From the NCBI GenBank assembly GCA_905199225.1, contig CAJKFS010000001.1, forward strand, positions 7,895 through 71,894: a stretch of DNA of 64,000 bases, written 5' to 3'. Under the pieces are notes generated by a model, which worked only from the letters and a program-made list of their open reading frames with translations, did not search any database and was not told the DNA's origin. The stretch is from an uncultured Collinsella sp. GTDB taxonomy: Bacteria > Actinomycetota > Coriobacteriia > Coriobacteriales > Coriobacteriaceae. Made by a program: the position numbers and the translations under genes. Below are positions 1-21,675 of this stretch, piece by piece. Each line of letters starts with the position of its first letter. Within the stretch, counting starts at the first letter, position 1.

Positions 1-60
1 GTATGACCTTCCGCATGCCGGCCTCCCATCATTTGTGATGCTGTTTTTGTGATGGGCGAG

Positions 61-105
61 GAGCACACCCTACACCATCTCATAGAGATGGTGTAGGGTG
101 TGCTC
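61..105. repeat. Perfect inverted repeat (hairpin): GAGCACACCCTACACCATCTC - ATA - GAGATGGTGTAGGGTGTGCTC, a 21-bp stem with a 3-nt loop
   Basis: Read directly from the sequence; the two arms are exact reverse complements. The right arm is also the start of the duplicated element (copy A). Confidence 0.9.
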
Positions 106-190
106 CTGTAATACAAAAGTTCTTTGAGGGCTTTAGGGCGATGCTTTCAGTTGGGGAGCGTTGTCTTTTTTGAGTGTAATGTCTGACATA
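85..190 (+). repeat. Copy A of a ~105-bp duplicated intergenic element, located ~220 bp upstream of the Abi_2 gene
   Basis: Aligns at ~80% identity with 5190-5300 in the same orientation (GAGATGGTGTAG...CAATACAAAAG...GCTTTA.GGGCGA.GCTTTC...TTTTTT...TGTAATGT). Confidence 0.8.
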
Positions 191-410
191 TTTCCCAAGT
201 GTTGTTTCATTTGCTTGATAGACAAGGGTGTCTGAATTTGGGTTTTATGGTTTGCTGCTCGACTCAAATATTTAACGTTGATTTTTGGATCGATAATCAG
301 TAGACTATCTGAACAGCGGTATTGACGCGGATAACCTACGGGTCCCGCGTCCTGCAGAAAGGCGGCTGTCCTTCTTGGGATGGCTGCCTTTCTTCATTTG
401 AGGAGCCTCA

Positions 411-1352
411 ATGACAGCAAAGCCTTTCTTGCCCATTGACGATCAAGTCAGATTGCTTAAGCAAAGGGGTTTGACTGTTGACGACAACACGGCTCGCATT
501 CTGATGAGCGAGGGTTATTACTCGATTGTTAACGGCTATAAGGATCCGTTTATTGATATGAGCTTAAGCTCGAAGTTCAATGAGGACCGGTATCGCAGCG
601 GCGCAACCTTTTCGGACCTATATTCATTGTTTACGTTCGATAGGGAGTTGAGGTCTCTAACATTTAAGTTTCTCATATTAGCCGAGGCCAAAATAAAGAC
701 CGCGATCGCGTACACCTTTTCGAATGTTCATCGTGGTCCCAATGACTATTACTTGCAGTCTTCATTTTGTACTCAAGACGAATATTCTGCGACGGGAAAA
801 GACGAGGCGAGATACGCCCGTGAGATTTCCAATCTGACGAGCATACTTAGCCGCAGGGCATTAAAAAGTAAATCTGAATTTGTTGCTCACTATCGCAATG
901 AATATGGTTCGGTGCCGCTGTGGGTTCTGGTTAATGATTTGACGTTTGGAAACATGGAGCATTTCTACAATCTGATGAAGCCCGGCGAGCGGCGTACTTT
1001 TTGCAAAATGATTGTAGATGCAACTGGGAAAACCGGATCGAAGAAAAGCGGTTTCTTTAGCGAAAAGGCCGCTCAACTTTCAATTGAAACACTCGTTAAA
1101 TTCCGTAACGTTTGCGCCCATGACGAGCGTCTTTATTGTGCTATGGTCGGAGGGCGCAAGAACATTAACTACATCCAGATGGTGTGGATGCTCAAACGTT
1201 ATCTGACCGAGATTGAATTCAGAACGTTTGTCGAAGAGTTGACGGCTCTGCTGAGTAGGTATTTGAAAACCTACGCGATAAAGCACATACTCGACCAAAT
1301 TGGATTTGTTGAGCTGCTTCAAAAGTCACAAGATGCCACCCTGTTCGATTGA
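411..1352 (+). CDS. Abi_2 family (AbiD/AbiF-like) abortive-infection protein
   Basis: The N-terminus KPFLPIDDQVRLLKQRGLTVDD...GYYSIVNGYKDPF matches the conserved Abi_2 N-terminal signature. Local GC is low (~45-48%). The ATG at 411 is preceded by GAGGAG. Confidence 0.85.
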   Translation: MTAKPFLPIDDQVRLLKQRGLTVDDNTARILMSEGYYSIVNGYKDPFIDMSLSSKFNEDRYRSGATFSDLYSLFTFDRELRSLTFKFLILAEAKIKTAIAYTFSNVHRGPNDYYLQSSFCTQDEYSATGKDEARYAREISNLTSILSRRALKSKSEFVAHYRNEYGSVPLWVLVNDLTFGNMEHFYNLMKPGERRTFCKMIVDATGKTGSKKSGFFSEKAAQLSIETLVKFRNVCAHDERLYCAMVGGRKNINYIQMVWMLKRYLTEIEFRTFVEELTALLSRYLKTYAIKHILDQIGFVELLQKSQDATLFD

Positions 1353-1594
1353 GGCTGAGGGCGTCGATACGGTTGAGTTGTCCTGCAATTGATATCCAAA
1401 TGATTGCACGACAATCTCTATCGAGTATCCAACTTTGCAGAATTATGAGCTGTGGTCAATGAGATGGTCGATGAGTTCGACGGTGGAGTGGTCACTATCT
1501 TTTACATTGAAGCCTAAGGCGATGGACATGCTTTAGATGGGACCGTTCTCACGTGCTGCTGGTTCATGAAGAGTTTTAGACAATTAGAATTAGT

Positions 1595-3421
1595 TTGGAC
1601 ATGGCTTATTTATCAAGGGGGCTGGCAAGAATGCGTCGCAATATCTTTCTGGGTTTTGGTTGTAGCGGCTATCGCTCCTTTTTCGGAAGTGAAGACTCGC
1701 GCTTCGGTCCATTTGATAAAGTCCAAGTCCTAGCGGGACAGAATAACTGCGGAAAATCGTCTCTTGTTGATTTTGTTATTAAGGCAATGACATCCATTGA
1801 CCAAAGAGGGGAAATCGCCCGCAATCGCTATCCCTTCACTAGGGAAGATGCGCCCTTGCTGCTGAAATCAGCGGGGGCAAATGACCCGTTGACTATTTCC
1901 CTGTGTATAGATCGATCTGTTTTATTGGAGTCCTCCAGTTTAAAGCGACCTTCTGGAGATAAGCGGATGGCAGAGCTTTCTGAGTTATTTTCCCGTCCGC
2001 CGTATATATCAAACGATGGAGATGGCGTTTGGCTTGACTTTCTAACGGCGTCGCCGGCTGCTGGGTCGTCTTTAGTAAATGATCTGATTGCGTCTTTCTC
2101 GCAGTATAAAAGTGCAGGCTTGTCTATGGACCTGAATCGCTGCTCCCTTGATCCTCTCCAACACGGCGGTGATGACGAATCGTGCTATGCCGACATAATC
2201 CGCAGTATTGTCCCGTGGGGGAATATCCCTCGCTTTGTTAAGGTCGATGCAATTAGGTCGGTTGAAGACGATGATTTTCCAGATCGCGATGTCGATCTTT
2301 GCAGCGGACGCGGTCTTCCAACAGCTTTGCTTCGCTTGTTTAATCCGGAGCGTTCAAATCATGCTCGGGCAGAAGCGCGGCTGAATAAGCTGCAAGGATT
2401 CGTGCGCGATGTCATGAACGACCCCCGTGCCTCTCTGCTTGTTTCGCATGAAAGCCATGAGATATCTCTTAAGACTTCCGATGCCGATTACCTGCCGCTT
2501 GAATCTTTGGGTACGGGAGTTACGGAGCTCGTAATTCTCGCTTCGATTATTGCTTGCAACGACAACAGCATTATCTGTATTGAAGAACCCGAAATTCATC
2601 TGCACCCGGCTCTGCAGGCGAGGTTTATGAAATACCTTCTCGAGGACGATTCAAACCGATTTATCATCACTACGCATTCTCCAACTGTTATTAACTATCC
2701 TGGCGTTCAGGTTGCCCATGTGTCTAAGACAAATGGAGTTTCTGGATGCAGACAGCTTGACGGTCTGGGTTGTGCTCGCGATTTGCTTGATGATTTGGGG
2801 GTCAAGCCCTCCGATCTGTTGCAAGCAAACTTTGTAGTGTGGGTTGAGGGGCCCTCGGACCGCGTGTACCTGAATTATTGGATTAAGAGATGGTCTGATG
2901 AGCATAACATTTCGCTCGAAGAAGGTATTCATTACAGTGCAATGATTTACGGTGGCAAGTTGCTGAATGCACTAGATGCAAGTGCTGGCGAAGATATCCC
3001 CGCGGAGCTGATATCCCTCTTTAGAATCAATACTCATTTCTGCGTGCTGATGGATTCTGATAAGAAATCCTCTCATTCGAGACTTAATTCAACCAAGCGA
3101 CGCATTATTGACGAGTGCACACAGAACGGCGCAATGTCGTGGGTTACCTGGGGCGCAACAATTGAGAACTATGTTCCAGAAGATGTGCTTGCAGCTTCGA
3201 TTGAGAAATGTTATTCGGGTAAAAAATGGGAGCATCCCCTTGGTGACAGATTTATTTGCCCGCTGAGCTTTACGTTTAAGGGTGGGAAAACGCATCCAGA
3301 TAAAATTAGGATTGCAAGGACTGCCTGTGGGGCCGGTTTTTCTCCGTTGGGTGATGCAATGAAACGCGTGGCAGAGTTGTGCGATCTGATATGTGCGGCC
3401 AATGACGTTGAAACGCAGTAG
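1595..3421 (+). CDS. OLD-family nuclease with an N-terminal ABC/AAA_15-type ATPase and a C-terminal TOPRIM domain
   Basis: Walker A GQNNCGKSS. OLD/AAA_21-type Walker B/D-loop IICIEEPEIHLHP. TOPRIM glutamate motif VVWVEGPSDRVYL and DxD motif LMDSDKK. The 608-aa length is similar to P2 Old and GajA. Confidence 0.8.
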   Translation: MDMAYLSRGLARMRRNIFLGFGCSGYRSFFGSEDSRFGPFDKVQVLAGQNNCGKSSLVDFVIKAMTSIDQRGEIARNRYPFTREDAPLLLKSAGANDPLTISLCIDRSVLLESSSLKRPSGDKRMAELSELFSRPPYISNDGDGVWLDFLTASPAAGSSLVNDLIASFSQYKSAGLSMDLNRCSLDPLQHGGDDESCYADIIRSIVPWGNIPRFVKVDAIRSVEDDDFPDRDVDLCSGRGLPTALLRLFNPERSNHARAEARLNKLQGFVRDVMNDPRASLLVSHESHEISLKTSDADYLPLESLGTGVTELVILASIIACNDNSIICIEEPEIHLHPALQARFMKYLLEDDSNRFIITTHSPTVINYPGVQVAHVSKTNGVSGCRQLDGLGCARDLLDDLGVKPSDLLQANFVVWVEGPSDRVYLNYWIKRWSDEHNISLEEGIHYSAMIYGGKLLNALDASAGEDIPAELISLFRINTHFCVLMDSDKKSSHSRLNSTKRRIIDECTQNGAMSWVTWGATIENYVPEDVLAASIEKCYSGKKWEHPLGDRFICPLSFTFKGGKTHPDKIRIARTACGAGFSPLGDAMKRVAELCDLICAANDVETQ

Positions 3422-3447
3422 GTGAATTATCGACCTGTCAATCATGA

Positions 3448-4476
3448 TTGAGGGGTGCGGCAGCTTTGGACAATAGCGTTGCGTATGAGTTGTATCTATA
3501 CACGATTGATACTTACAAGAGACTTGCCAGCACGCTTCCACTTGATGAGAGGCTTGCCCGTTTCGATCCTAATTGCTTTTCGAAATTAGGTGAACTTGAG
3601 CTTGGGGATGAAGCGTTTGCTGCGGTCTCGGTGCGTCTTATGCTGCAGCGCAAGTATTTTGTGCGCGGAAAGGACTTGTTTCTCAGGAGGCTGCTCAAGT
3701 CTGCTGAACGGGACTTCGCTTCTAGTAAGGATGTGATTGAATCCTTGCTGGATAGTCTTGATGCCCTTAATAGCCAATCAATTGAGTTTGCCTTTGGGGA
3801 CGGCAAGGTTGTCGAGGGTGCCTTTGCAAACGTCGAAGATGTAATGTACGGAGTGCTGATGCACGCGGATATAACGCGGGCAGAGAACCTCGTCTCTGTT
3901 CCCGAACACATGAGACTGGTCGCCCTGGCACCGTATATCGCGGGGAGAGAACAGATTTTGCTGCAGTTCTCTGAGTTCCTTCTTAATGCTGGAATCAAGC
4001 CGCTATCGAGGAAAGAGGAAGCATCGGCAACTGTTTCGTTTGAATCAAAAGACGCTTGTCGCCAGATTGAGAATTCGCCATTTTGGCGAAATCTTCGCGG
4101 TAGAGATCTTGGGGATGAGGACATTGAGAAAAAGGTTCAGCAAGGTTCGCGCGATGATTTAGAGATAATCACCGCTGTTCTACTATTCAAAGAGGCGCTT
4201 GGCAGAAGGCCCCTGGACCCCAGCGAACTCAATTCCCTTGTCGCACGGGAGACCATTTTCAGATGGGGTGATTATTTGCAAGCCGCCGAGCTTTTGGAAG
4301 GGGATTATGGAATGAGCACTCTTGTTCGGTATCAAGAGGACGGCTCGGCCCTCGTAAAGCTTCTCCCAAACGTTCGAGAACCGTTTCTGATTGAGGGACC
4401 GCAGCTCATCGAGGGCGGGCATGAAATAGTTCTGGTGAAGCGGAACGGCATTTGGAAGATATGGGCTATGAGGTGA
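3448..4476 (+). CDS. Hypothetical protein of 342 aa with no recognisable motifs, co-oriented 26 bp downstream of the OLD-family gene
   Basis: Long ORF on the same strand with a TTG start. Codon usage and GC resemble the upstream OLD gene. I could recognise no catalytic motif. Confidence 0.55.
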   Translation: MRGAAALDNSVAYELYLYTIDTYKRLASTLPLDERLARFDPNCFSKLGELELGDEAFAAVSVRLMLQRKYFVRGKDLFLRRLLKSAERDFASSKDVIESLLDSLDALNSQSIEFAFGDGKVVEGAFANVEDVMYGVLMHADITRAENLVSVPEHMRLVALAPYIAGREQILLQFSEFLLNAGIKPLSRKEEASATVSFESKDACRQIENSPFWRNLRGRDLGDEDIEKKVQQGSRDDLEIITAVLLFKEALGRRPLDPSELNSLVARETIFRWGDYLQAAELLEGDYGMSTLVRYQEDGSALVKLLPNVREPFLIEGPQLIEGGHEIVLVKRNGIWKIWAMR

Positions 4477-4699
4477 CTCTTTTCATCTAGTTTGGACGGC
4501 CTTTTATCCATTGGCGGGCGACGTATCACTTCTTTTGCAATTTAACAGCCACATAGCGAGTACGGCCACGCCCAGTCATATGATTCCCGGCGCTAAATAG
4601 CAAATCACTGACGTGGGCGCATGGACCGCGTCTTCGAGAGTCGCAACAGTTGACGAGGAATCGTCGCGTAGGGATATAAAGAATCTGGTGAGTGCGTTA

Positions 4700-5135
4700 G
4701 CCAGAGATGGCTTTACCGGGTTGCCGATGGTGGAGCCGGGCGCTGGAAAAGTTCTTTGTCTTGTGACGATATGTTAAGATCGATACCGTTCAGTTCCCGG
4801 ATCCGCGGGTCGGTGTAGTTGGCGTTGTAGATTGTCGTGTGCACGTCTTCAACAAAGCGGCTTCGCCTGTTTTCGGTTTCTTGATGGCATGGAAGCTCAT
4901 CTTTTCTTGTTCCCCCAGGTCTCTTAAATTGCCTCGTCGAGAAGTTCTACAAAGAGCCTACTGTGACTTGCCAACTCATACACTGCAGTATAGCTTGCGC
5001 CCGCTTTCGCCTCGTGCCAGGCAAGCGGATCGTAGTAGGCGAGAACATTCAATACTGGAAGAAGGCATTGATATGGGAAGTGCCGTGCCTTTTTGCCACC
5101 AAAATGCCCACCGTGCTTAATGGCGTAATTCATAA
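4700..5135 (-). pseudogene. Probable decayed gene remnant in frameshifted fragments
   Basis: Two minus-strand protein-like fragments in different frames (...AYYDPLAWHEAKAGASYTAVYELASHSRLFVELLDEAI, then ...RFVEDVHTTIYNANYTDPRIRELNGIDLNISSQDKELFQRP). No intact ORF longer than 100 aa exists across 4480-5440. Confidence 0.3.
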
Positions 5136-5189
5136 GATTTGTTATGGTCTCGGCCGGCTAGTTACGGGCTGATTTCCTCAATCAAGGGG

Positions 5190-5300
5190 AGATGGTGTAG
5201 AGTATTTTCCTACAATACAAAAGCTCTTCGGGAGCTTTAAGGGCGACGCTTTCTGTTAGAGAGTGTTGCCCTTTTTTCATGCATGTAATGTGCGACGTGC
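5190..5300 (+). repeat. Copy B of the ~105-bp duplicated intergenic element, located ~145 bp upstream of the AbiL-like ATPase gene
   Basis: Same alignment as copy A. It lacks the left hairpin arm that copy A has. Confidence 0.8.
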
Positions 5301-5443
5301 TTGCTAAACGCCATTCCGGCAATGGGATGGTCGAGTGTGGGCGGTTTGCACCTTGCGCCTGCTGTCATTGGTGTAGCAAGCACTTGATTTAGCCTACTTA
5401 AAGTCTATAATCAAAGAAAAACTCTGATATACCTTTTAAAACA

Positions 5444-6682
5444 ATGAAAAGAATGTTGAGTACCATGCTTTGCCAGTTCACCTTCAGGAACTATAGATCC
5501 TATCGCGACGAGACCGAGCTTTCCATGCAGGCAACATCGATGAGGGAGTTCGAGCGTTCCCTCATAGAGTGCCCTGACGGGCAGAATTTCCTTCCGGTAG
5601 CTGCGGTGTACGGGCCTAACGCTGGCGGCAAGTCTAACCTGCTCGAAGCTCTTGACTATATTCGTTCGGCGGTGGCAAGGCCGATCAGATTGTTGTCTGC
5701 CAGCACTGATGTGCCAGAAGGTAACCGCTCTTCGATACCCCGTTGCTCTGCGTTCGAGTTCGATGACGTGTCGGCTGCTAAGCCCACCGAGTTCGAGCTC
5801 TACTATCGCGCAGGTGAGCATGAGTACCGCTATGCCCTGTCCGTGCATGCGGACGAGATTGTGTCCGAAGGACTGTGGCGGCGCAAATTGGGGGCGTCAC
5901 GCACAGCGATGCTGTTCGAGCGCGAGGGCACAGGGGTTGAGCTTGGTCCCACTCTGCGTAAGCTTGTCACGGCTGCGAGATTCAACCCGAGCCTGCCGTA
6001 CCTGTCGTTTCTCTGCATCAACTTTGACGCGCCGGTGGTCAAGGAGGCTGCCAGCTGGTTTCTTGACGGGGTGTTCCTGAACTATAACAGCTCCTATCTG
6101 GAGCAGATGCTCGAACAATTGCTCGACGAGGATGACTCACCCGAGGTCACGCGTTTTTTGTGCGCCGTTGATGTGCGTATTGATGGCTTCAGAGTGGAGA
6201 GGGCGCCGGAGTGGCGCGGCCAGCGCGTCTTCGTGAGGCACGAGGTGGGCGACAAGGCGTACGAGCTGCGTTTATCCGAGGAATCTGCCGGAACCCAGAA
6301 GCTCATGGGGTTGGCTGCGTATCTGATGACAGCGCTTGAGCGTGGTGGCACCGTTGTGGTAGACGAGCTCGACGCCAAACTGCACCCGAAGCTTCTTCGC
6401 TATGTGATTCTGCTGTTTAAGGATCCTGAGGTCAACAAGAGTGGCGCGCAGCTCATCTTCTCGTCCCAGGATGTGTCAACCATGCGAAACGATGTGTTCC
6501 GCCGTGACGAGATATGGTTCGCTGCGCGCGGCGAGGGGGAGGCGAGCCAACTGTGGTCTCTCGCCGACATCCACGAGGCAAACGGTAATCTGGTAAGCAA
6601 GAACGCGGCTCTCGACAAGCAATACCTGTCTGGTCGCTACGGCGCCGATCCGTATCTCACCCGCATCGAAGAGTGGGATTAG
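5444..6682 (+). CDS. AbiLi-like AAA_21/AAA_15 ATPase (ATP-binding partner of an RloB-type protein)
   Basis: Walker A YGPNAGGKSN. Walker B/D-loop VVVDELDAKLHPKL. The stop codon lies 1 nt before the start of the RloB-like gene. Confidence 0.8.
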   Translation: MKRMLSTMLCQFTFRNYRSYRDETELSMQATSMREFERSLIECPDGQNFLPVAAVYGPNAGGKSNLLEALDYIRSAVARPIRLLSASTDVPEGNRSSIPRCSAFEFDDVSAAKPTEFELYYRAGEHEYRYALSVHADEIVSEGLWRRKLGASRTAMLFEREGTGVELGPTLRKLVTAARFNPSLPYLSFLCINFDAPVVKEAASWFLDGVFLNYNSSYLEQMLEQLLDEDDSPEVTRFLCAVDVRIDGFRVERAPEWRGQRVFVRHEVGDKAYELRLSEESAGTQKLMGLAAYLMTALERGGTVVVDELDAKLHPKLLRYVILLFKDPEVNKSGAQLIFSSQDVSTMRNDVFRRDEIWFAARGEGEASQLWSLADIHEANGNLVSKNAALDKQYLSGRYGADPYLTRIEEWD

Positions 6683-6683
6683 C

Positions 6684-7304
6684 ATGCTGGCGAAGAAGTC
6701 GAAGGGCTGGCGTAGCGGCAAGCGCGAGGGCAAGGAGACCGAGCCTCGCTACTTTGAGGGTGTGCGTGCGGCGTTGGGCGCGGCGAACGAGCGTAAGGTT
6801 GCCATTGTCGTTAAGGGGACCGGCAAACACACGCTTGACCTACTTGACTTCGCCGTCGAACACTGCCGCTATGCGCCCGAGACATTCGACCATGTGTGGC
6901 TCGTGTATGACAAGGATGACTTTCCTGCGTCCGACTTTGACGCGATGGAGCGCAAATGCAACGAGCTCTCCGACGGTTCGAGGACCTTCCATGCGTTGTG
7001 GTCGAACCCCTGCTTCGAGCTGTGGCCGCTTCTGCACTTTCGCTACACGACCGCGCATATGTCCGCGTCCGACTGCCAGCATGTCCTCGCGCAGGAGATG
7101 TCGAGAGACCTGGGCATCGAGTACCGCAAGAACTTGGACGGGCTGTTCGAGGTGGTGGACGGCAAACGAGGCGAGGCATTGCAGCGTGTTGGGCGCCTCG
7201 TCACATACCATAGGGGGCTGGGTAACGTTAAGCCATCTGCGCAAAACCCTGCAACCAAGGTGGGCGAAATTTTCGATGTAATCGGGCCGTATCTGGTTGG
7301 CTAG
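6684..7304 (+). CDS. RloB-like / AbiLii-like protein (divergent TOPRIM)
   Basis: N-terminal GKETEPRYFEG motif, a central WLVYDKDDF motif, and SNPCFELWPLLHF. These are the characteristic RloB-family motifs. This frame is chosen over the overlapping frame at 6673. Confidence 0.85.
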   Translation: MLAKKSKGWRSGKREGKETEPRYFEGVRAALGAANERKVAIVVKGTGKHTLDLLDFAVEHCRYAPETFDHVWLVYDKDDFPASDFDAMERKCNELSDGSRTFHALWSNPCFELWPLLHFRYTTAHMSASDCQHVLAQEMSRDLGIEYRKNLDGLFEVVDGKRGEALQRVGRLVTYHRGLGNVKPSAQNPATKVGEIFDVIGPYLVG

Positions 7305-7650
7305 TCGAGTCTGTGGATTGGCTTTCCGGTTAGGGCGATTGGCGGATTATGATGCGCGATTGCAAATCCGGTGCGTAGGAGAAGTGCGGAGAAAAATCGA
7401 AACTCGCCGAGCATAGCCCGATTTCAGGCAACAAAACCGCAGGTCGCGGGTGCCCAAAACTAGGGTCTGGTCGACAGGTCTCGGTTTTTCACCCCACTTC
7501 CGAATTGGTCGCTCATTTAGCACTCTTGATGTCCCCACATCCTCTAAAAAAGTTCTTAAAACAGCCTTAAAGGCGTTCCAACTCGCGTTGACAGCGTAAA
7601 ATACGCATGTTTGACTATGACAGAAGTGGATTTTAGGGGAGGAGTACGCC

Positions 7651-9789
7651 ATGGAGGTGCTGGTTGTTGGCAACACCGCATATGTTGACGATGACTTTTG
7701 TGCCAAGGCGTTCCCCGGGGACCACGTTAAGGTCGTCGCTGCCGCGGAAGCGCGCCGCGACGAGTCGTCGCCCCATGCCTCGTGGAAAGAGCTCCTCCAG
7801 CACCTGGATCAGGCCTACGAGTTCGACCGCGTGGTTTACCTGTCTAATTACCTTACCCCGCATACCGATTCCGTGGGCGATATCGAGCTGCTGCGCTCGG
7901 TCTTTCGTACGTGCGCGGGTCGCCGGGTCCAACTGCTGTATGTAGCGGGGCCCGCGGGTGCCGAGGGTGCCGCCGATGCCGCGGGGCGAACGGGCAAGGG
8001 CATTATCGCGCACGCAGCCAACGACCTGTGCCGCTACTACGCTGCTCGCGAGGGCGTTCAGACCAAGATCCTGCGCGTGCCGTTCCTCTATACCGCGTCT
8101 GCCGCGCTGGAGGACCCGTTTTTGGTGCCGATGTTCGACGCATGCTCAACCGGATCGGCCGCTCTGCAGGGCGCGCAGGATGCGGCGTTTCCCCTGCTGT
8201 GTGCCGAGGAGCTTTCGGTGCTGGTACGCCGTATCTTCGACAGCTGGAATGCTAACTTTGAGACGCTCGACGTAGTCGATACCTTCCATCACACGGTGGG
8301 TGAGGTGGGCGACGCCCTCAAGGCGCTGTTCCCAGGGCTCTCAGTTGCCTATGGCGATTCTGCCGGCTACGCCCTGCCCGCCAGCGACGTCGCTCGCGTG
8401 CGCTATGGCTGGTTTCAGCGCTACGACTTGCTGCGCGACCTCTCGACCATTCAGGCTCGCTGGGATGCTGGCCGTGCAAAGAAGGTCAACCCCTTGCGCG
8501 CGGCCATCGACCGCATTCAAATGCGCACGCTGCCTGTCAAATGCCTGGAGACGGCAGCCGCCTGGGTGCTCTTTGAAGTGCTGGAGCGCTTGTTCTCCCA
8601 ATCGACCCAGCTCAACGTGCTCGATTATCGCCTGCTCTACGTGGTGCTGATCGGCACGCTGTATGGCTTGGACTTTGGCCTGGTTGCGGCGCTGCTGGCG
8701 TCGGTGGGTTTGGCTGCGAGTTACTTTACTCTGTACGGCTATACCTTCCAGGGCCTGTTCTACGAGCCGTCCAACTGGCTGCCGTTTATTGCGTACTTTG
8801 TTGTGGGTGCCGTGTGCGGCTATGTGCAGCTGCGCAACAGCGAAGCCATTAGGGCGGAGCGCGATCAAAACGAGCTCGTGCGCAACCGCAATACGTTCCT
8901 TACGCAGCTCTATCACGACGCGATCGAGGACAAGCGTGCGTACAGGCGCCAGATCGTGGGTCGCCACGACAGCTTTGGCAAGATCTTTGCCGTGACGCAG
9001 GAGCTCGACGTGCTCAACCCACGCGACATCTATCGCAAGTGCTGCGAGCTTCTGGGCGAGATCCTCGAGAACGATTCGGTGGCGATCTACCATGTTTCGG
9101 GCGGGGCATTTGCACGCCTGGTGGCGGCAAGTCCCGCGATTGCCGAAGATGCCGCACGTTCGCTCACGCTTGAGCAGCTTGCACCTCTTTTGAGCGACGG
9201 GGGTCGTTCGAACCTGTGGGTGAACCGCGAACTGATGCCGGGGCTTCCCATGTTTTGTTATACGATCGAGCGCGATGGGGCACCCGCCGTGTTGATCTTT
9301 GTGCGTCGCGCGGCCGAAAACCAAATGACCCTCTATTACCAAAACCTGTTCCGCATCTTGTGTGGCCTGGTCGAAAGCGCGCTGGGCCGTGCCTTTGACT
9401 ATGAGGCGGTGGCACAGGATAAACGCTGCGTTGACGGCACTTGCGTGCTCAAGCAGGCTGCCTTTGGCCAAGAGCTCGCGGCCGAGCAGGCGCTGGCAGA
9501 TGGCAAGATGGGGAGTTTTTTGCTCCTGCGCGTGGTACCAGGCATGGAGCCTATCGGCGAGCTGGTGGGCGCGATTGGGTCGGCGATCCGCGAGAGCGAT
9601 GCGGCGGGCCTGATCGACGGCGACGTGCTCTACCTGCTTATGCGCCAGGCAAAGGCATGCGATCTGCCCATTATCCGCGAGCGCCTGAGCGAAAAGCAGA
9701 TTGAGGTGGAGCCCGTCGACGGCGAGGATATCGTGGCGCTGTTGCAGCACATCTCTTACACCGGTGACGGTGAGGGGGGTGCCGCTTGA
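7651..9789 (+). CDS. pelD: PelD-like c-di-GMP receptor: N-terminal degenerate SDR/epimerase-like domain, transmembrane helices, and a GAF / degenerate-GGDEF C-terminus
   Basis: RESD(x5)DGDVL gives an intact I-site RxxD five residues before a degenerate GG(D/E)EF position. Hydrophobic helices occur near residues 330-400. The N-terminus (VLVVGN..., ...RVPFLYTAS) looks like a Rossmann/epimerase fold without GxxGxxG. It is the first gene of an operon containing pelF and pelG. The ATG is preceded by GGGGAGGAG. Confidence 0.6.
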   Translation: MEVLVVGNTAYVDDDFCAKAFPGDHVKVVAAAEARRDESSPHASWKELLQHLDQAYEFDRVVYLSNYLTPHTDSVGDIELLRSVFRTCAGRRVQLLYVAGPAGAEGAADAAGRTGKGIIAHAANDLCRYYAAREGVQTKILRVPFLYTASAALEDPFLVPMFDACSTGSAALQGAQDAAFPLLCAEELSVLVRRIFDSWNANFETLDVVDTFHHTVGEVGDALKALFPGLSVAYGDSAGYALPASDVARVRYGWFQRYDLLRDLSTIQARWDAGRAKKVNPLRAAIDRIQMRTLPVKCLETAAAWVLFEVLERLFSQSTQLNVLDYRLLYVVLIGTLYGLDFGLVAALLASVGLAASYFTLYGYTFQGLFYEPSNWLPFIAYFVVGAVCGYVQLRNSEAIRAERDQNELVRNRNTFLTQLYHDAIEDKRAYRRQIVGRHDSFGKIFAVTQELDVLNPRDIYRKCCELLGEILENDSVAIYHVSGGAFARLVAASPAIAEDAARSLTLEQLAPLLSDGGRSNLWVNRELMPGLPMFCYTIERDGAPAVLIFVRRAAENQMTLYYQNLFRILCGLVESALGRAFDYEAVAQDKRCVDGTCVLKQAAFGQELAAEQALADGKMGSFLLLRVVPGMEPIGELVGAIGSAIRESDAAGLIDGDVLYLLMRQAKACDLPIIRERLSEKQIEVEPVDGEDIVALLQHISYTGDGEGGAA

Positions 9790-10691
9790 TCTCGCTTGTC
9801 GTTGCTGCCGTCTTGCTGCTGATTCATGCGCTGGTTTGCCTGGTGCTGTGGACGCTCATGAAGTTGGGCCTGCTGCCGGTGCGCGGGCACATGCTGCCTG
9901 TGATAGTGCTGGTGCCGCTGTGGGGCCCGTTGCTGGTGGTTCTGCTATCGGTCTGCAGCGCGGTGTTTGGCGAGGGACTGAATGAGTCTGCGCTGGAGTC
10001 GCTGCGCTTCAACGACGACCTGCATCGCAGCATCTTAGTGCACGAACGTGATGCCGATGCAGGCGTGATCCCGCTCGAGGAGGCGCTCATCGTCAACGAC
10101 CCGGCAGACCGGCGCCGCCTAATGCTCTCCATGCTCACCGAGGAGCCCGACGCGTACCTGGCGCAGCTGCAGGCGGCTAAGCTTAACGACGACGTTGAGG
10201 TGGCTCACTATGCCGCGACGGCGGTGGCGCAGATCTCCAAGGAGTCCGACCTTAAACTGCAGCAGCTGGAGCGTGCCTTTAAGACGGACCCGAGCGCGCA
10301 AAACCTCAACGAATACTGCGATTTTCTTGGTGAATACTTGGGCTCGGGCTTGGCTGAGGGGCGCGTGGCTCAGATTCAACGCCAACAGTACGCGCGCTTG
10401 CTTGCGCGTCGCTGCGAGCGCGAGGACACCCTTGAGCTTCGCATTCGATACGCGACGGCGCTGGCCGATGTCGGACAGATCGACGAGGCGCAGGCCGTGA
10501 CCGACCAGCTGGTGCTCGACGTGCCCGAGGAGCAGGAGGTTTGGATGCTTTGCCTGCGCCTGGCGGTGATGCGCCGCGACGGTGACGAGGTCCACCGCGT
10601 GATCGATGCGATTGACAAACAGCATGTATACTTGAGCGCCGCCAACCGCGAGGAACTGGCGTTTTGGCGCAACGGAGAGGAGGCCCGATGA
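9786..10691 (+). CDS. pelE: PelE-like membrane protein (N-terminal transmembrane helices plus helical/TPR-like repeats)
   Basis: A hydrophobic N-terminus with two predicted transmembrane segments is followed by an alpha-helical repeat region. Its position between pelD and pelA matches Gram-positive pel operons. The TTG start overlaps the pelD stop. Confidence 0.5.
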   Translation: MISLVVAAVLLLIHALVCLVLWTLMKLGLLPVRGHMLPVIVLVPLWGPLLVVLLSVCSAVFGEGLNESALESLRFNDDLHRSILVHERDADAGVIPLEEALIVNDPADRRRLMLSMLTEEPDAYLAQLQAAKLNDDVEVAHYAATAVAQISKESDLKLQQLERAFKTDPSAQNLNEYCDFLGEYLGSGLAEGRVAQIQRQQYARLLARRCEREDTLELRIRYATALADVGQIDEAQAVTDQLVLDVPEEQEVWMLCLRLAVMRRDGDEVHRVIDAIDKQHVYLSAANREELAFWRNGEEAR

Positions 10692-12568
10692 GCGTGGTGC
10701 AGCATATCCGCGACCGTGCGGGCCATTTTCGCTGGATGGGGCTGCTTGTGGTGTGGGCGGTCTTTATTGCCATGGCGGCCGTGCTGCTGGTGGAGCGCGC
10801 CGGCGTGCAGTACAGTGCGGGCCAGCATAAGCTGGGGATGCTTGCCGCCAACGATGCGGTGCCGGCTTCCTCCGCAATATTTGGCCAAAAGCCCACGTGC
10901 CTGGTCATTACCGATTCCGACCAAGCTGGCGTCGAGGACGTAAAGGAGCAGTTTGACCAGATCCTGCTCGACATGAAGATCGCGCACCGCGACGTGGACC
11001 TTGCCCTGGACGGCGTGGATGCCATTCCCTCGCTGACCTCCTTCGATCGCGTGATTTTGCTCATGCCGTCGCTCGATGGGCTCGGTACGCACCTGAGTGA
11101 CATTATGAGTTGGGTGAGTGCCGGTGGTTCGCTTATGCTCGCCATGCCTCCGGATAACTCGAGCTATCTGCAAGTAATTGCCCCCAAGCTTGGCATTGAA
11201 TCGGCCGGATATGACTATGTAAAAGCCGAAAGCATTGTGCCGAGCGAGGACTTTATGCTGGGCGGGGGAGAGCGCTACGAGCTCTCGGACCCCTTCGATT
11301 CGTCGCTTTCGGTTTCGCTGCGCGAGACGGCTCGTGTGTGGGCTAAGACCGGCGATGCGGGCGCCCCGCTCATTTGGTCGAATGACTGCGGTAGCGGGCG
11401 CACCGTGGTATGCAATATCGGTATCTATGACAAGGTTATGCGCGGTTTTTACGCCGCGGCGATCAGCCTGCTGGGCGATGCCACGGCCTATCCGGTCATC
11501 AACAGCGCCGTTTTCTACCTAGACGACTTTCCCAGCCCCGTGCCCTCGGGCGATGGCACCTACATCAAGCGCGACTACGGGCTTTCCATTGCCGATTTTT
11601 ACACCAAGGTTTGGTGGCCCGATCTGCAAAAGCTCGCGCAAAAATATGGCATTCGCTTTACCGGCGTGATGATCGAAAACTACGAGGACGCGGTCAACCA
11701 GACCGAGCCCGCGCGCCAGGCCGATACCACGCAGTTCCGCTACTTTGGCGGTATGCTGCTGCAGATGGGCGGAGAGCTGGGCTTTCACGGCTACAACCAT
11801 CAGCCTCTGGCGCTCTGGGATACCGACTATGGCAAGCTGTACGACTACAAGACGTGGAAGAACGAGGAAACGCTCGTCGCGTCGCTCAACGAGCTCATCG
11901 CCTTTCAGGACGAGGTGCTGCCCAACGCGCACGGCTCGGTCTATGTGCCACCGTCGAATATCCTTTCGGCCCGTGCGCGCAAGCTTATTGGCACCGACGT
12001 TCCGCGCATTAAGACCATCGCCAGTACGTATTTTGAGGATGGCACCGTCTTGCCCCATGTGCAGGAGTTTGGCGTGGCGAGCGATGGCATTGTGGAGCAG
12101 CCACGTATTGTCTCGGGCGGCATGGTCAACGATTCCTATATGCGTCTGGCAGCCGTGTCCGAGCTCAACATGCACTACGTGAGTACGCACTTTATGCACC
12201 CGGATGATCTGCTCGATCCCGATCGCGGCGCCAAGGAGGGCTGGGAGGTCTACAAGGGCGGTCTGACCAACTACCTGGAGTGGCTTACCAAGTCTGCGCC
12301 CGACCTGCGGCGCCAGACCGGTTCGGAATGCTCGGGCGCCATCCAGCGCTTTTCGTCCGTGACGGTGAGCGTGGATACAAGTGCGGATGCCTGGACGCTC
12401 AGCCTGGGCAATTTCCACGACGAGGCGTGGCTCATGTTCCGCGCCAACAACGGTGAGCCCGGTGCAGTCACGGGTGGCGAGATTACGCATCTGACGGGCG
12501 ACCTGTACCTGGTCAAAGCCACGGACAAGACGGTGACCATTGCACGCAAGGAGGGTGGCGACAAATGA
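10688..12568 (+). CDS. pelA: PelA-like polysaccharide deacetylase (CE4-like) with an N-terminal membrane anchor
   Basis: CE4-like motif 1 FYLDDFP and motif 2 HGYNHQP. An N-terminal transmembrane helix is present. ATGA start/stop coupling links it to pelE upstream and pelF downstream. Confidence 0.55.
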   Translation: MSVVQHIRDRAGHFRWMGLLVVWAVFIAMAAVLLVERAGVQYSAGQHKLGMLAANDAVPASSAIFGQKPTCLVITDSDQAGVEDVKEQFDQILLDMKIAHRDVDLALDGVDAIPSLTSFDRVILLMPSLDGLGTHLSDIMSWVSAGGSLMLAMPPDNSSYLQVIAPKLGIESAGYDYVKAESIVPSEDFMLGGGERYELSDPFDSSLSVSLRETARVWAKTGDAGAPLIWSNDCGSGRTVVCNIGIYDKVMRGFYAAAISLLGDATAYPVINSAVFYLDDFPSPVPSGDGTYIKRDYGLSIADFYTKVWWPDLQKLAQKYGIRFTGVMIENYEDAVNQTEPARQADTTQFRYFGGMLLQMGGELGFHGYNHQPLALWDTDYGKLYDYKTWKNEETLVASLNELIAFQDEVLPNAHGSVYVPPSNILSARARKLIGTDVPRIKTIASTYFEDGTVLPHVQEFGVASDGIVEQPRIVSGGMVNDSYMRLAAVSELNMHYVSTHFMHPDDLLDPDRGAKEGWEVYKGGLTNYLEWLTKSAPDLRRQTGSECSGAIQRFSSVTVSVDTSADAWTLSLGNFHDEAWLMFRANNGEPGAVTGGEITHLTGDLYLVKATDKTVTIARKEGGDK

Positions 12569-13992
12569 GAATCTGCTTGGTACTCGAGGGTTGCTACCCC
12601 TATGTGCACGGCGGCGTGTCCACCTGGATGCACGGCTACATACAGGCCATGCCCGAGCACGAGTTTGTGCTGTGGGTGATTGGCGCGCATGCTGTCGACC
12701 GCGGCAAGTTTGTCTACGAGCTGCCCGGCAACGTGGTCGAGGTGCACGAGGTGTTTCTGGACGACGCCCTGCGCCTATCGGGCGAGCAAGAAGAGGCCGA
12801 CTTTAACGCCCGCGAGCGCGAGGCGCTGCGCCGCCTGGTGTCGCTCTCCAATCCGGACTGGGACGTGCTATTCGATATCTTCCAGCGCCGTCGCGTGCAT
12901 CCGCTCTCGTTTTTGCAGAGTCGCGCCTTTATGGATATCTTTCGCGACGTGTGCCTGGCCGAGTACCCATACACGCCCTTTGCCGATGCATTCCACACCA
13001 TGCGCTCCATGCTGCTGCCCGTGCTCTACCTTCTGGGCAGCGAGGTGCCGGTGGCCGATGTGTACCACGCCATCTCGACCGGCTACGGTGGCCTGCTCGC
13101 CTGCCTGGGCTCAAGCGTTCACCATGCGCCGGTGCTGCTGACCGAGCATGGCATCTATACTCGCGAACGCGAGGAAGAGATCATTCGCGCTGACTGGGTG
13201 GTGCCGTCGTTTAAGGACCGCTGGATCCGCTTTTTCTACCTGCTTTCGGAGGAGATCTACCGTCGCGCCTTCCGCGTGACCAGTTTGTTCCATAACGCCC
13301 GCAAGACGCAGATCGATATGGGCTGCGATGCGGACAAATGCCTGGTCATCCCCAACGGCATCCAGTTCGACCGCTTTAAGGACATTCCCTTAAAGCCCGA
13401 TGACGGCTGGGTGGACATTGGCGCGGTGGTGCGCCTGGCGCCCATCAAGGACGTCAAGACCATGATCTATGCGTTCTTTGAGCTGCACGAGCGCCTGCCC
13501 AAGGTGCGCCTGCACGTTATGGGCGGCGTGGACGACGAGGAGTACGGCGCTGAGTGCCACGCGCTGGTCGATACCCTGGGCGTGCGCGACCTGATCTTTA
13601 CCGGCCGCGTCAACGTGGTCGAGTACATGGAAAAGCTCGACTTTACCATTTTGACGAGCATCTCCGAGGGCCAGCCACTCAGCGTGCTGGAGTCGCTTGC
13701 AGCGCGCCGTCCCTGCGTGACGACCGAGGTGGGCTGCTGTCGCGAGCTGCTCGAAGGCGCCCCGGGCGACGACTTTGGCGTGGCGGGTTTTGTGACGCCG
13801 CCCATGTATCGCAAGGGCTTGGCCGATGCCATGGAGCGCATGTGCGTGAGCCGCGCCCGTCGCATTGAGATGGGGGAGCGCGGGCAGCGTCGCGTTGCCA
13901 CGTACTTTTTGCACGAGCAGATGCTCGCCAACTATCGCGCGCTGTACGACGAGACGGCGTGTGCGTTTAACCTGCCCAGAGAGGGGGAGTAG
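12565..13992 (+). CDS. pelF: PelF, a GT4-family glycosyltransferase with an N-terminal DUF3492
   Basis: N-terminus MRICLVLEGCYPYVHGGVSTW matches the PelF/DUF3492 signature (CLLLEG.YPYV.GGVSSW). The C-terminus has the GT4 fold motif E..GQPLSVLES.A. Confidence 0.85.
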   Translation: MRICLVLEGCYPYVHGGVSTWMHGYIQAMPEHEFVLWVIGAHAVDRGKFVYELPGNVVEVHEVFLDDALRLSGEQEEADFNAREREALRRLVSLSNPDWDVLFDIFQRRRVHPLSFLQSRAFMDIFRDVCLAEYPYTPFADAFHTMRSMLLPVLYLLGSEVPVADVYHAISTGYGGLLACLGSSVHHAPVLLTEHGIYTREREEEIIRADWVVPSFKDRWIRFFYLLSEEIYRRAFRVTSLFHNARKTQIDMGCDADKCLVIPNGIQFDRFKDIPLKPDDGWVDIGAVVRLAPIKDVKTMIYAFFELHERLPKVRLHVMGGVDDEEYGAECHALVDTLGVRDLIFTGRVNVVEYMEKLDFTILTSISEGQPLSVLESLAARRPCVTTEVGCCRELLEGAPGDDFGVAGFVTPPMYRKGLADAMERMCVSRARRIEMGERGQRRVATYFLHEQMLANYRALYDETACAFNLPREGE

Positions 13993-13995
13993 CCG

Positions 13996-15540
13996 GTGGC
14001 CGGAATTGGTTTTGAGCTCAAGCGCCTGTTTAGGCGCAAGGGCCTGTTTGCCACGATGCGCGCTTACGGCTACGCCGGCATCGTATGCACGGGCCCCATG
14101 CTGCTGGGTGTGCTGCTGCAGGTGGGTATTTTGGTGCTGTGCGGTCTGTGGGGTGTGGGCCGTGCCAACCAGGATCTGCTGGTGTGCATGGTGACCTACA
14201 CACTGCTGGCCTCGCTTGCGCTCACGAGCTTTTTCTCCATGCCGGTCACGCGCTTTTTGGCTGATATGTTGTTTGCCGAGCGCGAGGATGAGATACTGCC
14301 TTCGTTTTGGGGCTCCAATGCTGTCATGCTCGTTGCGGGCACGGTGCTCTACGGCGTTTTTTTGCTGTTCTCGGGCGCCACGCTGCTGCAGGGGCTGCTA
14401 TGCCTGTGGCTGTTCAACATTATGATCGTCAACTGGAACGGCATGAGTTACCTCACGGCCATCAAGGATTACCGCGGTATCCTGTGCAGCTTTGCGGCTG
14501 CCATTGGCGTGGCGTGCCTGTGCGCTCTGGCCGCGCTGGCGCTGGGACTGCCGCCGGTCGAGGGCCTGCTGGCGTCAATCGCTCTGGGCTACGGCGTGAT
14601 GCTCGCTTGGGACGTGGTGCTGCTGTACCGGTATTTTCCACGGAGTGACCGGAGTCCCTGGCGTTTTTTGCGCTGGCTCGACCAATTTATGCCGCTTGCG
14701 CTTACGGGGCTGTTTACCAACTTGGGGCTTTTCGCACACCTGGTTATTATCTGGGCGGGCCCTATTGGCGTGCAGATCAAAGGCCTGTTTTACGGGGCTC
14801 CTTACCATGACGTGCCGGCACTCATTGCGTTTTTGACCACACTCGTCACGACCGTCAACTTTGTGGTGTCGGTCGAGGTCAATTTCTATCCGCGCTACCG
14901 TGACTACTACAGCCTTTTTAACGACGGCGGCGTGGTGGGCGATATTGTGGTGGCCGAGGAGGAGATGCTCTCCACGCTCAACAGCGAACTGCGCTTTTGC
15001 GCGCTCAAGCAGCTGTTTGTGACGGCGGCGGTCATTTCGCTCGAGACCACAGTGCTCTCGGCCCTGCCGCTGGGCTTTAACAATCTTATGCACGGGTATT
15101 TTCGCACGTTATGCGTAGGCTACGGCCTGTATGCCGTGGGCAACACGATCCTGCTTATCTTGCTGTACTTTACCGACTACAAGGGAGCCGTTCTGGCCTC
15201 GGGCCTGTTTGCCGGTGTGGCAGGGTTGGCGACCGCCGTGTCGTTGCTTTTGCCGCAGCAGTTTTACGGCTTTGGCTTTTTGTTGGGTGCGGTGGTGTTT
15301 TTTATCGTGGCCCTGCTGCGGCTCGATACCTATACCGCCAACTTGCCGTATCGTATCCTGAGCCAGCAGCCCATTGTGGCGACCGACAAAACGGGTCGCT
15401 TTACACAGCTGGGCCGCTTGCTCGACCGTGCCGAGCAGCGCTATGAGGAGTGCCGCCGCAAGGGCGTGCCGCACGGCGCGTTTCAGCGCGCAGTAGTTCG
15501 CGTGTATCGCAACCATTGGGGAGGTTCTGATGATCGATAA
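13996..15540 (+). CDS. pelG: PelG, a polytopic membrane protein (MOP/flippase-like)
   Basis: N-terminus MAGIGFELKRLFRRKGLFATMRAYGYAGIVCTGPMLLGVLL closely resembles PelG N-termini. Roughly 12 hydrophobic segments are present. GTG start. Confidence 0.85.
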   Translation: MAGIGFELKRLFRRKGLFATMRAYGYAGIVCTGPMLLGVLLQVGILVLCGLWGVGRANQDLLVCMVTYTLLASLALTSFFSMPVTRFLADMLFAEREDEILPSFWGSNAVMLVAGTVLYGVFLLFSGATLLQGLLCLWLFNIMIVNWNGMSYLTAIKDYRGILCSFAAAIGVACLCALAALALGLPPVEGLLASIALGYGVMLAWDVVLLYRYFPRSDRSPWRFLRWLDQFMPLALTGLFTNLGLFAHLVIIWAGPIGVQIKGLFYGAPYHDVPALIAFLTTLVTTVNFVVSVEVNFYPRYRDYYSLFNDGGVVGDIVVAEEEMLSTLNSELRFCALKQLFVTAAVISLETTVLSALPLGFNNLMHGYFRTLCVGYGLYAVGNTILLILLYFTDYKGAVLASGLFAGVAGLATAVSLLLPQQFYGFGFLLGAVVFFIVALLRLDTYTANLPYRILSQQPIVATDKTGRFTQLGRLLDRAEQRYEECRRKGVPHGAFQRAVVRVYRNHWGGSDDR

Positions 15541-17299: not shown

Positions 17300-18077
17300 C
17301 GCGCTGCTTGAGCGCTTGGCGGCTCCGCCTGTGCGTGCCACGCAGGAGCGTTACCGCCACGAGCTCAAATATCTCATTAACGAGGGTGAGCACGCCGCGC
17401 TGGCCTGCCGCATGGCGCCGGTTTTCAAGCTAGACAAGCATGCGCAGGCGGGCGGCTATACCATTCGCAGCCTGTACTTTGACGACTACTGCAACTCGGC
17501 CTACGAAGAAAAAGACGCCGGCATTCTTATGCGCAAAAAGTATCGCGTGCGCATCTATAACGGCAGCGACAAGGTGATTAAGCTCGAGCGTAAAAAGAAG
17601 TACGGTAGCTGGATCTACAAGGAGGACGCGCCGCTCACGCGCGGCGAGTTTGAACAGATTCTGGCCGGAGACTACGACTTTTTGCTGAGGAGCCCCTATC
17701 CCCTCTGTCGCGAGTTCTACATCGAGTGCATCTGCAACATGATGCGCCCGCGGACCATCGTGGACTACGAGCGCGAGCCGTGGGTGATGGACGAGGGCAC
17801 CGTGCGCATTACCTTTGATAGCAACGTGCGTGCCGCGGTGGGAAGCTTCGACATCTTTGACGCGACGCTGCCCGCGCTGCCGGTCCTGGAGCCCGGCAAG
17901 CTGGTGATGGAGGTCAAGTTTACGGAGTTTTGCCCGCAGCTGGTGCGCGATATGGTGCCGCCGGGCGCGGCCGAGCTCACGGCGGTCTCCAAGTACTGCC
18001 TGTGTTACGAAAAGACCGCCTACCTGCGCGGATTTAATTACTGGGAATCGGATTTTGAGAACCGAGGGGATATTTAG
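17286..18077 (+). CDS. VTC-domain (CYTH-like, polyphosphate-polymerase-domain) protein
   Basis: LKYLINEGEHAAL...GYTIRSLYFDD...KYRVRIY matches the bacterial VTC-domain pattern. It overlaps the upstream gene by 14 bp. Confidence 0.65.
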   Translation: MRKASALLERLAAPPVRATQERYRHELKYLINEGEHAALACRMAPVFKLDKHAQAGGYTIRSLYFDDYCNSAYEEKDAGILMRKKYRVRIYNGSDKVIKLERKKKYGSWIYKEDAPLTRGEFEQILAGDYDFLLRSPYPLCREFYIECICNMMRPRTIVDYEREPWVMDEGTVRITFDSNVRAAVGSFDIFDATLPALPVLEPGKLVMEVKFTEFCPQLVRDMVPPGAAELTAVSKYCLCYEKTAYLRGFNYWESDFENRGDI

Positions 18078-18080
18078 ACC

Positions 18081-18776: not shown

Positions 18777-19013
18777 CCGCTCGACGCTGCGCGGGCATCT
18801 GCCGGGCGATCTGCCGCTCAAACCGTCGCTCGCGTACATAAAGTACGCGTCGCTCCTCTTTTGTGGCACCTCGCCACGGCAGCTGCCCGTTCGCTGGCGT
18901 ATGCTCGACCAGGATGGGCATATTTGGTTCGGTTTAAATTGATTTATTATGCCGACTTGGGCTGGGTATGATGGTGCAAACGATTGCAAGATAAAGGGGT
19001 GCTCGTGGTAAAG

Positions 19014-21568: not shown

Positions 21569-21675
21569 GAGCTTTTGATTGAGGGGATGCCCGCGGGTTG
21601 TATGCTCGCGGGCGTTTCCCGTATCCGGTGCCGATCTCTGGTGCCTTGTTACTTTCGATCCGTTAGGACTTTGAT

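Follow-up and report, generated by a model that had tools for sequence, protein, structure and literature searches.

A short conserved non-coding element marks a defense-gene hotspot upstream of a LacI/PTS/sucrose-hydrolase operon in Collinsella, and the window (the whole 64-kb stretch of DNA analyzed here) carries two copies of it, A and B. The element is genuine and not a local duplication. It is nearly always present as a single copy, in one orientation and at one locus, and it has a structure specific to the + strand, sharp edges of homology, mosaic alleles and no conserved promoter. We consider it probable, with moderate confidence, that the element is a conserved terminator or 3' UTR module with a second role as a homology anchor in the shuffling of defense cassettes; that transcripts would actually end there, that the next gene would be insulated and that recombination has passed through the element are what we infer from the sequences. 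The element provides a sequence handle on a chromosomal defense hotspot of a common human-gut genus and, since the locus is reached in about 75 species with a single short pattern, a practical bait for the discovery of defense systems. Cargo retrieved with it includes AbiD, AbiL, OLD/AriA-like ATPases, SIR2, AbiH, DUF4238, DUF6119, nSTAND/PP2C/PIN proteins and many unknowns.

Two copies in the window and one locus in the genus

The initial annotation described a direct repeat of about 80% identity whose first copy is capped by a perfect 21-bp palindrome, and most of this description stands. Positions 85-138 and 5189-5242 are 80% identical over 54 nt without gaps, and a gapped alignment of copy A (85-190) with copy B (5189-5300) has 83 of 106 positions identical (78%). 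A profile of the pair, run with nhmmer over the 64-kb window, found just the two copies (E-values of 1e-30 and 1e-35) and, inverted, the left palindrome arm at 59-81. The distances to the following start codons are also as claimed, from about 190 to the ATG at 411 for copy A and from about 5300 to the ATG at 5444 for copy B. The palindrome is indeed perfect with a 3-nt loop, but its arms measure 23 nt rather than 21; copy A begins with the right arm, and the fold of 59-172 has a free energy of -68.4 kcal/mol (z -10.9). A long palindrome is absent from copy B, as had been noted; at most a hairpin of 8 bp, rich in G-U pairs, may form there. The features of the region, in window coordinates, are as follows.

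59-81 and 85-107, loop 82-84, no strand: perfect palindrome H0 (class II), arms of 23 nt, 100% complementary
85-190, + strand: copy A of the element (class II allele), homologous core to about 181, tail TGTAATGTCTGAC common to other classes
108-119, + strand: single-stranded A-rich linker of copy A, GUAAUACAAAAG, nearly invariant in all classes
116-134, + strand: hairpin H1 of copy A, 8 bp with two U-G pairs
135-171, + strand: hairpin H2 and U-tract of copy A, 14 bp (stem 135-167, U-tract 166-171)
234-5151, + strand: cassette between the copies, comprising the Abi_2 leader, AbiD/Abi_2, the OLD/AriA-like ATPase, its partner and a truncated pseudogene
234-410, + strand: Abi_2 leader, structured, within the cassette
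411-1352, + strand: AbiD/Abi_2 gene (family assignment)
1595-3421, + strand: OLD/AriA/GajA-like ABC ATPase gene (family assignment)
3448-4476, + strand: partner gene without a recognized family
about 4725-5151, minus strand: pseudogene, 5'-truncated and frameshifted, matching the C-terminal ~140 aa of a family of 403-452 aa
5189-5300, + strand: copy B of the element (B-type allele), same allele in L009, L018, L021 and L077
5220-5238, + strand: hairpin H1 of copy B, 8 bp, loop UCG
5239-5277, + strand: hairpin H2 and U-tract of copy B, 16 bp (stem 5239-5273, U-tract 5272-5277)
5444-6682: AbiLi gene
6684-7304: AbiLii gene
7627-18746: optional gene cluster of about 11 kb (DUF4118 protein, TPR protein, DUF2194 and others), which some Collinsella genomes have and others lack
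19005-23205: LacI/PTS/sucrose-hydrolase operon, behind the optional cluster

The G+C content is 46-50% across positions 1-5000 and about 60% elsewhere in the window. An ORF on the + strand at 4839-5120, which had been read as a gene remnant upstream of copy B, is spurious, and the real relic is the minus-strand pseudogene, truncated about 40 nt from copy B. A metagenome contig (L001) that is 99.99% identical to window positions 1-7972 reaches 6.4 kb further to the left and has no further copy of the element in that extension. Its positions 1-6400 hold a candidate defense unit composed of a 348-aa unknown protein, a 972-aa Metallophos/nSTAND NTPase (PADLOC PDC-S60-like), PP2C and PIN_12, and the nSTAND-NTPase/PP2C/PIN_12 unit ends with its own terminator at L001 6351-6376. 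Neither copy in the window thus directly terminates an intact gene, since copy A follows a gene that is self-terminated and copy B follows the minus-strand pseudogene. The sole tRNA gene of the window, tRNA-Asn (GTT) at 42050-42124, is unrelated to the element; as ARAGORN gave only this gene, duplication of a tRNA or tmRNA 3' end was rejected as the source.

A pattern of 20 bases from the 5' part of the element, GATGGTGTAG-N(11-15)-AATACAAAAG (pattern 1), matched 86 stretches in a collection with one genome per species. About 75 of these are from Collinsella/Coriobacteriaceae, and the remainder are chance matches in A+T-rich coding DNA. The initial annotation would have settled for a chance segmental duplication had no further copies turned up, and with some 75 Collinsella genomes, far above chance expectation, that outcome clearly fails. 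Each of the genomes found with pattern 1 has one stretch with one copy, the exception being L016, which has the arrangement of the window. A second search, with the H1/H2 junction sequence (pattern 2), returned at least 119 metagenome stretches, mostly from the human gut, and the element is present in at least 110 of them. Viral contigs contained no genuine copy, and a phage or satellite origin was therefore rejected. So was a dispersed repeat of the REP or MITE type, which would have many scattered copies with terminal inverted repeats or target duplications; the window has two copies in 64 kb at one locus, and the genome scan gave one stretch per genome.

One order of genes recurs in the 8-kb loci. 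Variable defense genes (Abi_2, a SIR2_2 protein, an MBL-like protein, DUF6119, DUF4238, AbiH and others) come first, then the element, then an optional AbiL pair or HTH gene, and then a core right-hand neighbor whose orientation the element always shares. This neighbor is either the operon that begins at window position 7627 (DUF4118 protein, TPR, DUF2194) or the LacI/PTS/sucrose-6-phosphate hydrolase operon. Because the window carries the LacI/PTS set behind the DUF4118 operon, genomes of the LacI/PTS type simply lack the insert of about 11 kb. The nearest ORFs belong to 26 families upstream of the element and 39 downstream, some of these probably being spurious ORFs. In about 75 of 118 distinct contexts a + strand ORF of 120 aa or more has its stop codon at most 183 nt before the element, which argues for a 3' module and for neither a free-standing gene nor a leader. 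Nothing relevant was found in the literature on Collinsella defense islands or sRNAs.

Structure on the + strand

The conserved core consists, in order, of RAUACAARAG, a 7-8 bp hairpin (H1), a 13-16 bp hairpin (H2) and a U-tract. On the + strand both copies of the window fold alike, with the A-rich linker (..AAUACAAAAG), H1, a directly abutting H2 of 14-16 bp and six U, and the minus strand outside the palindrome folds far less well. The G+C-rich stem followed by TTTTTT that defines a Rho-independent terminator is found in both (stems 135-167 and 5239-5273) and across 69 distinct cores, and the H2 hairpins of copies A and B are the two best terminator-like sites in window positions 1-7700. In these 69 cores 98.8% of 1516 pairing cells are standard on the + strand, against 80.3% on the - strand. 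Of the 22 pairs in the H1 and H2 stems, 16 vary, always on one side through a wobble (A-U/G-U, G-C/G-U, U-G/C-G), and non-pairing cells are rare, with one to three sequences each. As no double-sided compensatory changes occur in H1 or H2 among the 69 cores, classical covariation is undemonstrated, and shuffled controls equal the observed pairing of these stems, so that this control does not discriminate. Some of the apparent conservation is due to ascertainment, since both search patterns imposed certain positions, GATGGTGTAG and AATACAAAAG in pattern 1 and the H1 3' arm with the H2 5' arm in pattern 2. The frequency of pair-preserving variants, the rarity of pair-breaking ones, the strand asymmetry and the U-tract nonetheless indicate a putative functional terminator hairpin on the + strand.

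The linker RAUACAARAG is nearly invariant, which pattern 1 partly imposed, and the H1 stem is likewise conserved in sequence, with freely varying loops in H1 and H2. A plain terminator needs no sequence conservation in the linker and H1, and a function beyond termination, for instance protein binding or base-pairing, is therefore likely to judge by these alignments. No site complementary to the linker was found in the 64-kb window. The core is about 88% identical (by eye) beside Abi_2 genes whose proteins share just 65% identity. Within class I the element is no more conserved than the adjoining spacer (pi of about 0.02 in both), and stronger constraint on the element than on its neighbors within one class was rejected.

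Rho-independent terminators, structured 3' UTRs and 3'-UTR-derived sRNAs such as CpxQ or DapZ are known kinds of RNA feature. The element resembles them in its G+C-rich stem and U-tract on the coding strand just downstream of genes, in its extra upstream hairpin and conserved single-stranded stretch, and in its wobble-tolerant stems. It differs from them in that one module, 80-90% identical, follows at least five unrelated upstream gene families and outlives them, and in its confinement to one chromosomal locus of one genus. A + strand transcript from any upstream gene would run through the linker RAUACAARAG and the 7-8 bp hairpin and would halt at the 13-16 bp hairpin and U-tract, a predicted Rho-independent terminator. 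The element would in this way end, and probably stabilize, the upstream transcript, and would insulate the next unit, often a toxic Abi gene with its own promoter, against read-through.

Sigma-70-type scans found no conserved promoter of the element in most classes, although the consensus used may differ from the promoters of Coriobacteriia. Class I alone has a promoter-like TTGTAA-17-TATAGT, ending about 85 nt upstream of the element. The downstream units of the window have promoter-like sites of their own outside the repeat, TTGATT-16-TATAAT at 5384-5411 for AbiL and TTGATT-17-TAGACT at about 273-301 for Abi_2; the latter scores 8/12, under the scan cut-off of 9, and is conserved as TTGACT-17-TAGCCT in L050. 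Rfam 15 covariance models, RF03085 included, gave no match to the element, the gathering-threshold match being a tRNA alone, and E-value scans of positions 1-420 and 5100-5460 gave just chance miRNA-type matches on hairpins.

One of three readings offered by the initial annotation was a small RNA gene in two copies. Its RNA part, a + strand structure with a terminator, was borne out; the free-standing sRNA gene was not, since a trans-acting sRNA gene would have its own promoter at a fixed distance and no such promoter was found. A 3' UTR or terminator module fits better because there is no conserved promoter and most copies follow a + strand gene. That the element nevertheless is or yields a regulatory sRNA of about 100-125 nt, 3'-UTR-derived or independent, with the linker AAUACAAAAG as a seed or protein-binding site, is possible, though we think it rather unlikely. 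The succession of 5' hairpin, conserved single-stranded stretch, hairpin and terminator is sRNA-like and + strand specific, the linker and H1 sequence are kept across alleles with freely varying loops and 5' parts, H2 pairing is kept in lineages with a divergent or truncated upstream gene, and class I has its promoter-like site at about 85 nt. Most classes, however, lack a promoter-like site, no such site keeps a constant distance from the element, homology begins at the element itself, the 5' hairpin is not universal, and neither an Rfam family nor a linker-complementary site in the window was found.

The perfect palindrome and one Abi_2 subfamily

All class II alleles follow genes of one Abi_2 subfamily (C-terminus ..FSFFKGM(I/V)DAWYP..), and the palindrome begins about 42 nt past their stop codon. 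Nine class II variants differ in 11 of the 23 arm pairs, in each case on both sides (28 cells), with no one-sided change and no G-U pair; 99.5% of cells pair, and none of 500 shuffles reached these co-change values. This pattern is the opposite of that in H1 and H2 of the same element. Since the arms co-vary by Watson-Crick changes alone, maintenance at the DNA level is suggested, either through template-switch 'correction' of a quasi-palindrome or through selection for a symmetric duplex or cruciform, and not selection at the RNA level. Correction by template switching, through which imperfect inverted repeats become perfect, is known from mutagenesis in E. coli. The class II palindrome and locus L208, where an imperfect hairpin has turned into a perfect one of 20 bp, likewise show changes in both arms without intermediates, and the conversion in L208 is consistent with template switching. 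Such correction is a mutational mechanism and not a function, and leaves the persistence of a 22-27 bp palindrome beside one Abi_2 subfamily unexplained.

In L146 and L211 a perfect palindrome of 26-27 bp, unrelated in sequence, stands in the same position after an Abi_2 of 65% identity and is followed by a complete core of the element (L211 2529-2586, 27 bp perfect, with the same sequence in L146). The surroundings in L211, with IS21 IstB, an NTase toxin-antitoxin pair and ArsP_2, are unlike the usual locus, so the unit of Abi_2, palindrome and element apparently also occurs in a second genomic context. Every perfect palindrome found, in about nine class II variants and in the L146/L211 type, follows this subfamily. 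The palindrome is not a general trait of Abi_2, as ordinary terminators follow homologues of 43-50% identity and another subfamily at the same locus. The partner Abi_2 gene is gone from the window, and the palindrome there is most likely a relic. A co-varying palindrome restricted to Watson-Crick changes beside one Abi_2 subfamily is the most unusual aspect of the element and a separate, testable oddity.

We regard it as unlikely that the palindrome and core form a 3'-encoded partner of this one Abi_2 (AbiD/F-like, HEPN) subfamily, or that the element is an exchange site independent of a recombinase. As a partner, it may regulate or trigger the toxin in the form of a DNA hairpin, a cruciform or a long stem of perfect dsRNA; as an exchange site, the element may belong to a cassette system by which Collinsella diversifies its defense. 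Abi_2 proteins have been structurally linked to ancestral Cas13 proteins (PMC12373285).

A further comparison is with the abiF RNA motif, or RCd22, the antitoxin-like ncRNA of AbiF systems (Rfam RF03085; PMC12373285). Like that motif, the element is a structured RNA-like sequence of about 100-130 nt with a terminator near an Abi_2-family gene, copy A lying 220 bp upstream of Abi_2. Unlike it, the element precedes the promoter-like site of Abi_2, is not part of the cassette as delimited in L009, is found beside many non-Abi genes, and is accompanied here by an Abi_2 gene with a structured leader of its own (234-410). Identity with the AbiF ncRNA was rejected, since the literature places that ncRNA in the abiF leader, and the element is outside the leader and has no RF03085 match. 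A type III toxin-antitoxin RNA was rejected as well; there are no tandem repeats, and the promoter-like site and leader of Abi_2 separate the element from the gene. The Abi_2 leader itself (fold z -4.7) has a hairpin at 324-355 and another, of 17 bp, at 356-393, whose U-rich tail directly precedes the RBS GAGGAG and the start codon (ATG, 411). Attenuator-type leaders of this kind have been described for abiD1/AbiF, although the Abi_2 leader does not match Rfam RF03085.

Homology edges, mosaic alleles and tandem pairs

Pairwise comparison of 53 distinct contexts placed the start of the shared segment usually at -20 to 0 and its end at +80 to +120 relative to GATGG, and homology between different contexts is limited to about -12 to +100/115. 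On the left, alleles carry traces of vanished genes. Class I alleles keep the last 170 nt of a SIR2 gene and a 146-nt spacer even where the SIR2 gene has been lost, copy A keeps the last ~20 nt and spacer of a vanished F6-type Abi_2 gene (window 26-58), and alleles of the L081 type are preceded by at least 150 nt of the degenerate 3' end of an LPXTG gene, G14. The G14 gene is intact, with its stop codon abutting the element, in about 20 metagenome loci among the matches listed (e.g. L134, L097, L160), and its 3' UTR is for this reason the most plausible origin of the element. The product of G14 is a surface protein of 373 aa with an LPXTG anchor, and the final codons of the gene make up the 5' half of the H0 hairpin at those loci.

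The right-hand junctions are scattered, at +86, +90, +99, +105 and +115. In five loci (L093, L096, L112, L116, L167; at about 3330 in L096) the junction falls inside H2, where the element is cut behind the 5' arm of that hairpin at ..GCTTTC|TTATTACTTCTCTGTACCCCCTTTGGGGG, and the cassette joined there encodes a dCTP-deaminase-like protein with a C-terminal transmembrane region, which may be a defense gene. Three different 5' classes share the right-hand junction CCCTTT|AATATGAGAAAG, and two share a single combination of H2 loop and right flank; such mosaic alleles point to crossovers inside the element.

Copies A and B are alleles of different widespread classes, class II and B-type. The B-type allele also stands alone before the same AbiL pair in L009, L018, L021 and L077. 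L009 has the Abi_2/OLD-like cassette without copy A and its homology to the window begins at 234, so copy A belongs with its left side; in L077 homology begins at window position 5148. Five further contigs with two direct copies of the element, in varied combinations of classes, were found among the matches listed.

Class III and class I: spacing of 6247 and 6255 bp
Class II and L081-type: spacing of 3072 bp
L081-like and class I: spacing of 661 bp
The combination of the window: spacing of 5105 bp

The stretch 190-413 of the window, which holds the Abi_2 leader, has a counterpart of 76% identity behind class I alleles in genomes whose Abi_2 gene is deleted (relic at +115 to +330 in L050), and is thus a shared sequence that could place an element-bearing cassette behind a resident element.

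On the reading as a terminator or 3' UTR module with a second role as homology anchor, the element would most likely have arisen as the 3' UTR of the LPXTG gene, which was later replaced piecemeal by defense cassettes. Because the element is the sole sequence common to unrelated versions of the hotspot, homologous recombination would cross over inside it, and what lies to its left would be shuffled independently of what lies to its right. Now and then, recombination through another common stretch, for example the Abi_2 leader, would stack two alleles in tandem. The window would be such a stacked case, with class II (copy A) and B-type (copy B) alleles bracketing the Abi_2/OLD-like cassette, and we infer that its duplication is a by-product of cassette shuffling. 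A dual role of this kind would illustrate how a non-coding module can both shield toxic cassettes from read-through and supply homology for reshuffling without a dedicated recombinase.

Integron cassettes often carry defense or toxin genes, and the element resembles integron attC sites and chromosomal cassette arrays as a structured sequence of about 100 bp located 3' of cassettes in direct orientation. It differs from attC in being found without IntI, R''/R' core sites or a single imperfect hairpin, in its maximum of two copies, in its U-tract and RNA-type wobble variation, and in its multi-gene cassettes with promoters of their own. An integron attC was rejected on its two separate hairpins and U-tract, its limit of two copies and alignments in which no RYYYAAC/GTTRRRY cores are visible. 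No integrase or recombinase was found in window positions 1-7400, in the 6.4 kb to the left on L001 or among the main neighbor families.

Defense-island hotspots in E. coli lie within tRNA genes, the tmRNA gene and rybB (PMC10121019). The element is like these RNA-gene hotspots in being a small structured-RNA-like sequence at the junction of variable defense cargo, with varying occupancy. There the cargo travels on mobile elements that bring an integrase and leave an exact duplicate of the RNA gene's 3' end. The element differs in its diverged alleles, its imprecise junctions and the variable DNA on both of its sides, and no integrase was seen with it.

A second reading in the initial annotation, att-like scars that bracket an insert of 5.1 kb, is borne out only in part. 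The copies do coincide with the edges of modules, but no insertion duplicated them, as they are 78% identical and of different widespread classes rather than near-identical; the cassette occurs with copy B only in L009, and with right junctions from +86 to +115 and no recombinase seen, an att site or target duplication was rejected. That the element is a site-specific recombination site, attC- or att-like, at the 3' end of mobile defense cassettes, with the window as a two-cassette array, is in our view very unlikely. Its classes do track the left gene (class II with F6-type Abi_2, class III with the MBL-like gene, class I with SIR2), six independent arrangements have a cassette of 0.7-6.3 kb between direct tandem copies, the unit with Abi_2 and palindrome recurs in the apparently different neighborhood of L211, and the palindrome co-varies in the Watson-Crick-only style of DNA. 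Yet no integrase or recombinase was found among the annotated neighbors of the main families, a locus has at most two copies, and the right junctions are scattered, some inside H2. At the left junctions the remnants of genes differ in length, which fits illegitimate or homologous events and not precise cleavage, the U-tract and the stem changes confined to G-U indicate RNA-level constraint, and the cassettes have their own promoters.

Hardly credible is the remaining reading of the initial annotation, in which the element would be a common promoter, operator or leader and would regulate the defense units behind it together: both copies lie upstream of defense operons on the same strand, and the inner half-sites of the palindrome, CTACACCATCTC/GAGATGGTGTAG, could bind a dimeric protein, but a strong predicted terminator closes the element, the two copies cease to be homologous 100-220 bp short of the downstream genes, whose promoter-like sites are outside the repeat, the element elsewhere precedes unrelated, core or minus-strand genes (39 nearest-ORF families downstream), and copy B and most alleles have no palindrome.

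The motif GATGGTG was rejected as a Chi-like signal, as it shows no meaningful excess or strand skew in the window. Upstream of the element in L136 there is a 15-nt tandem duplication, GAGATGGTGTAC-TGC-GAGATGGTGTAG, and together with the conversion in L208 it looks like local template switching or slippage at the 5' edge of the element.
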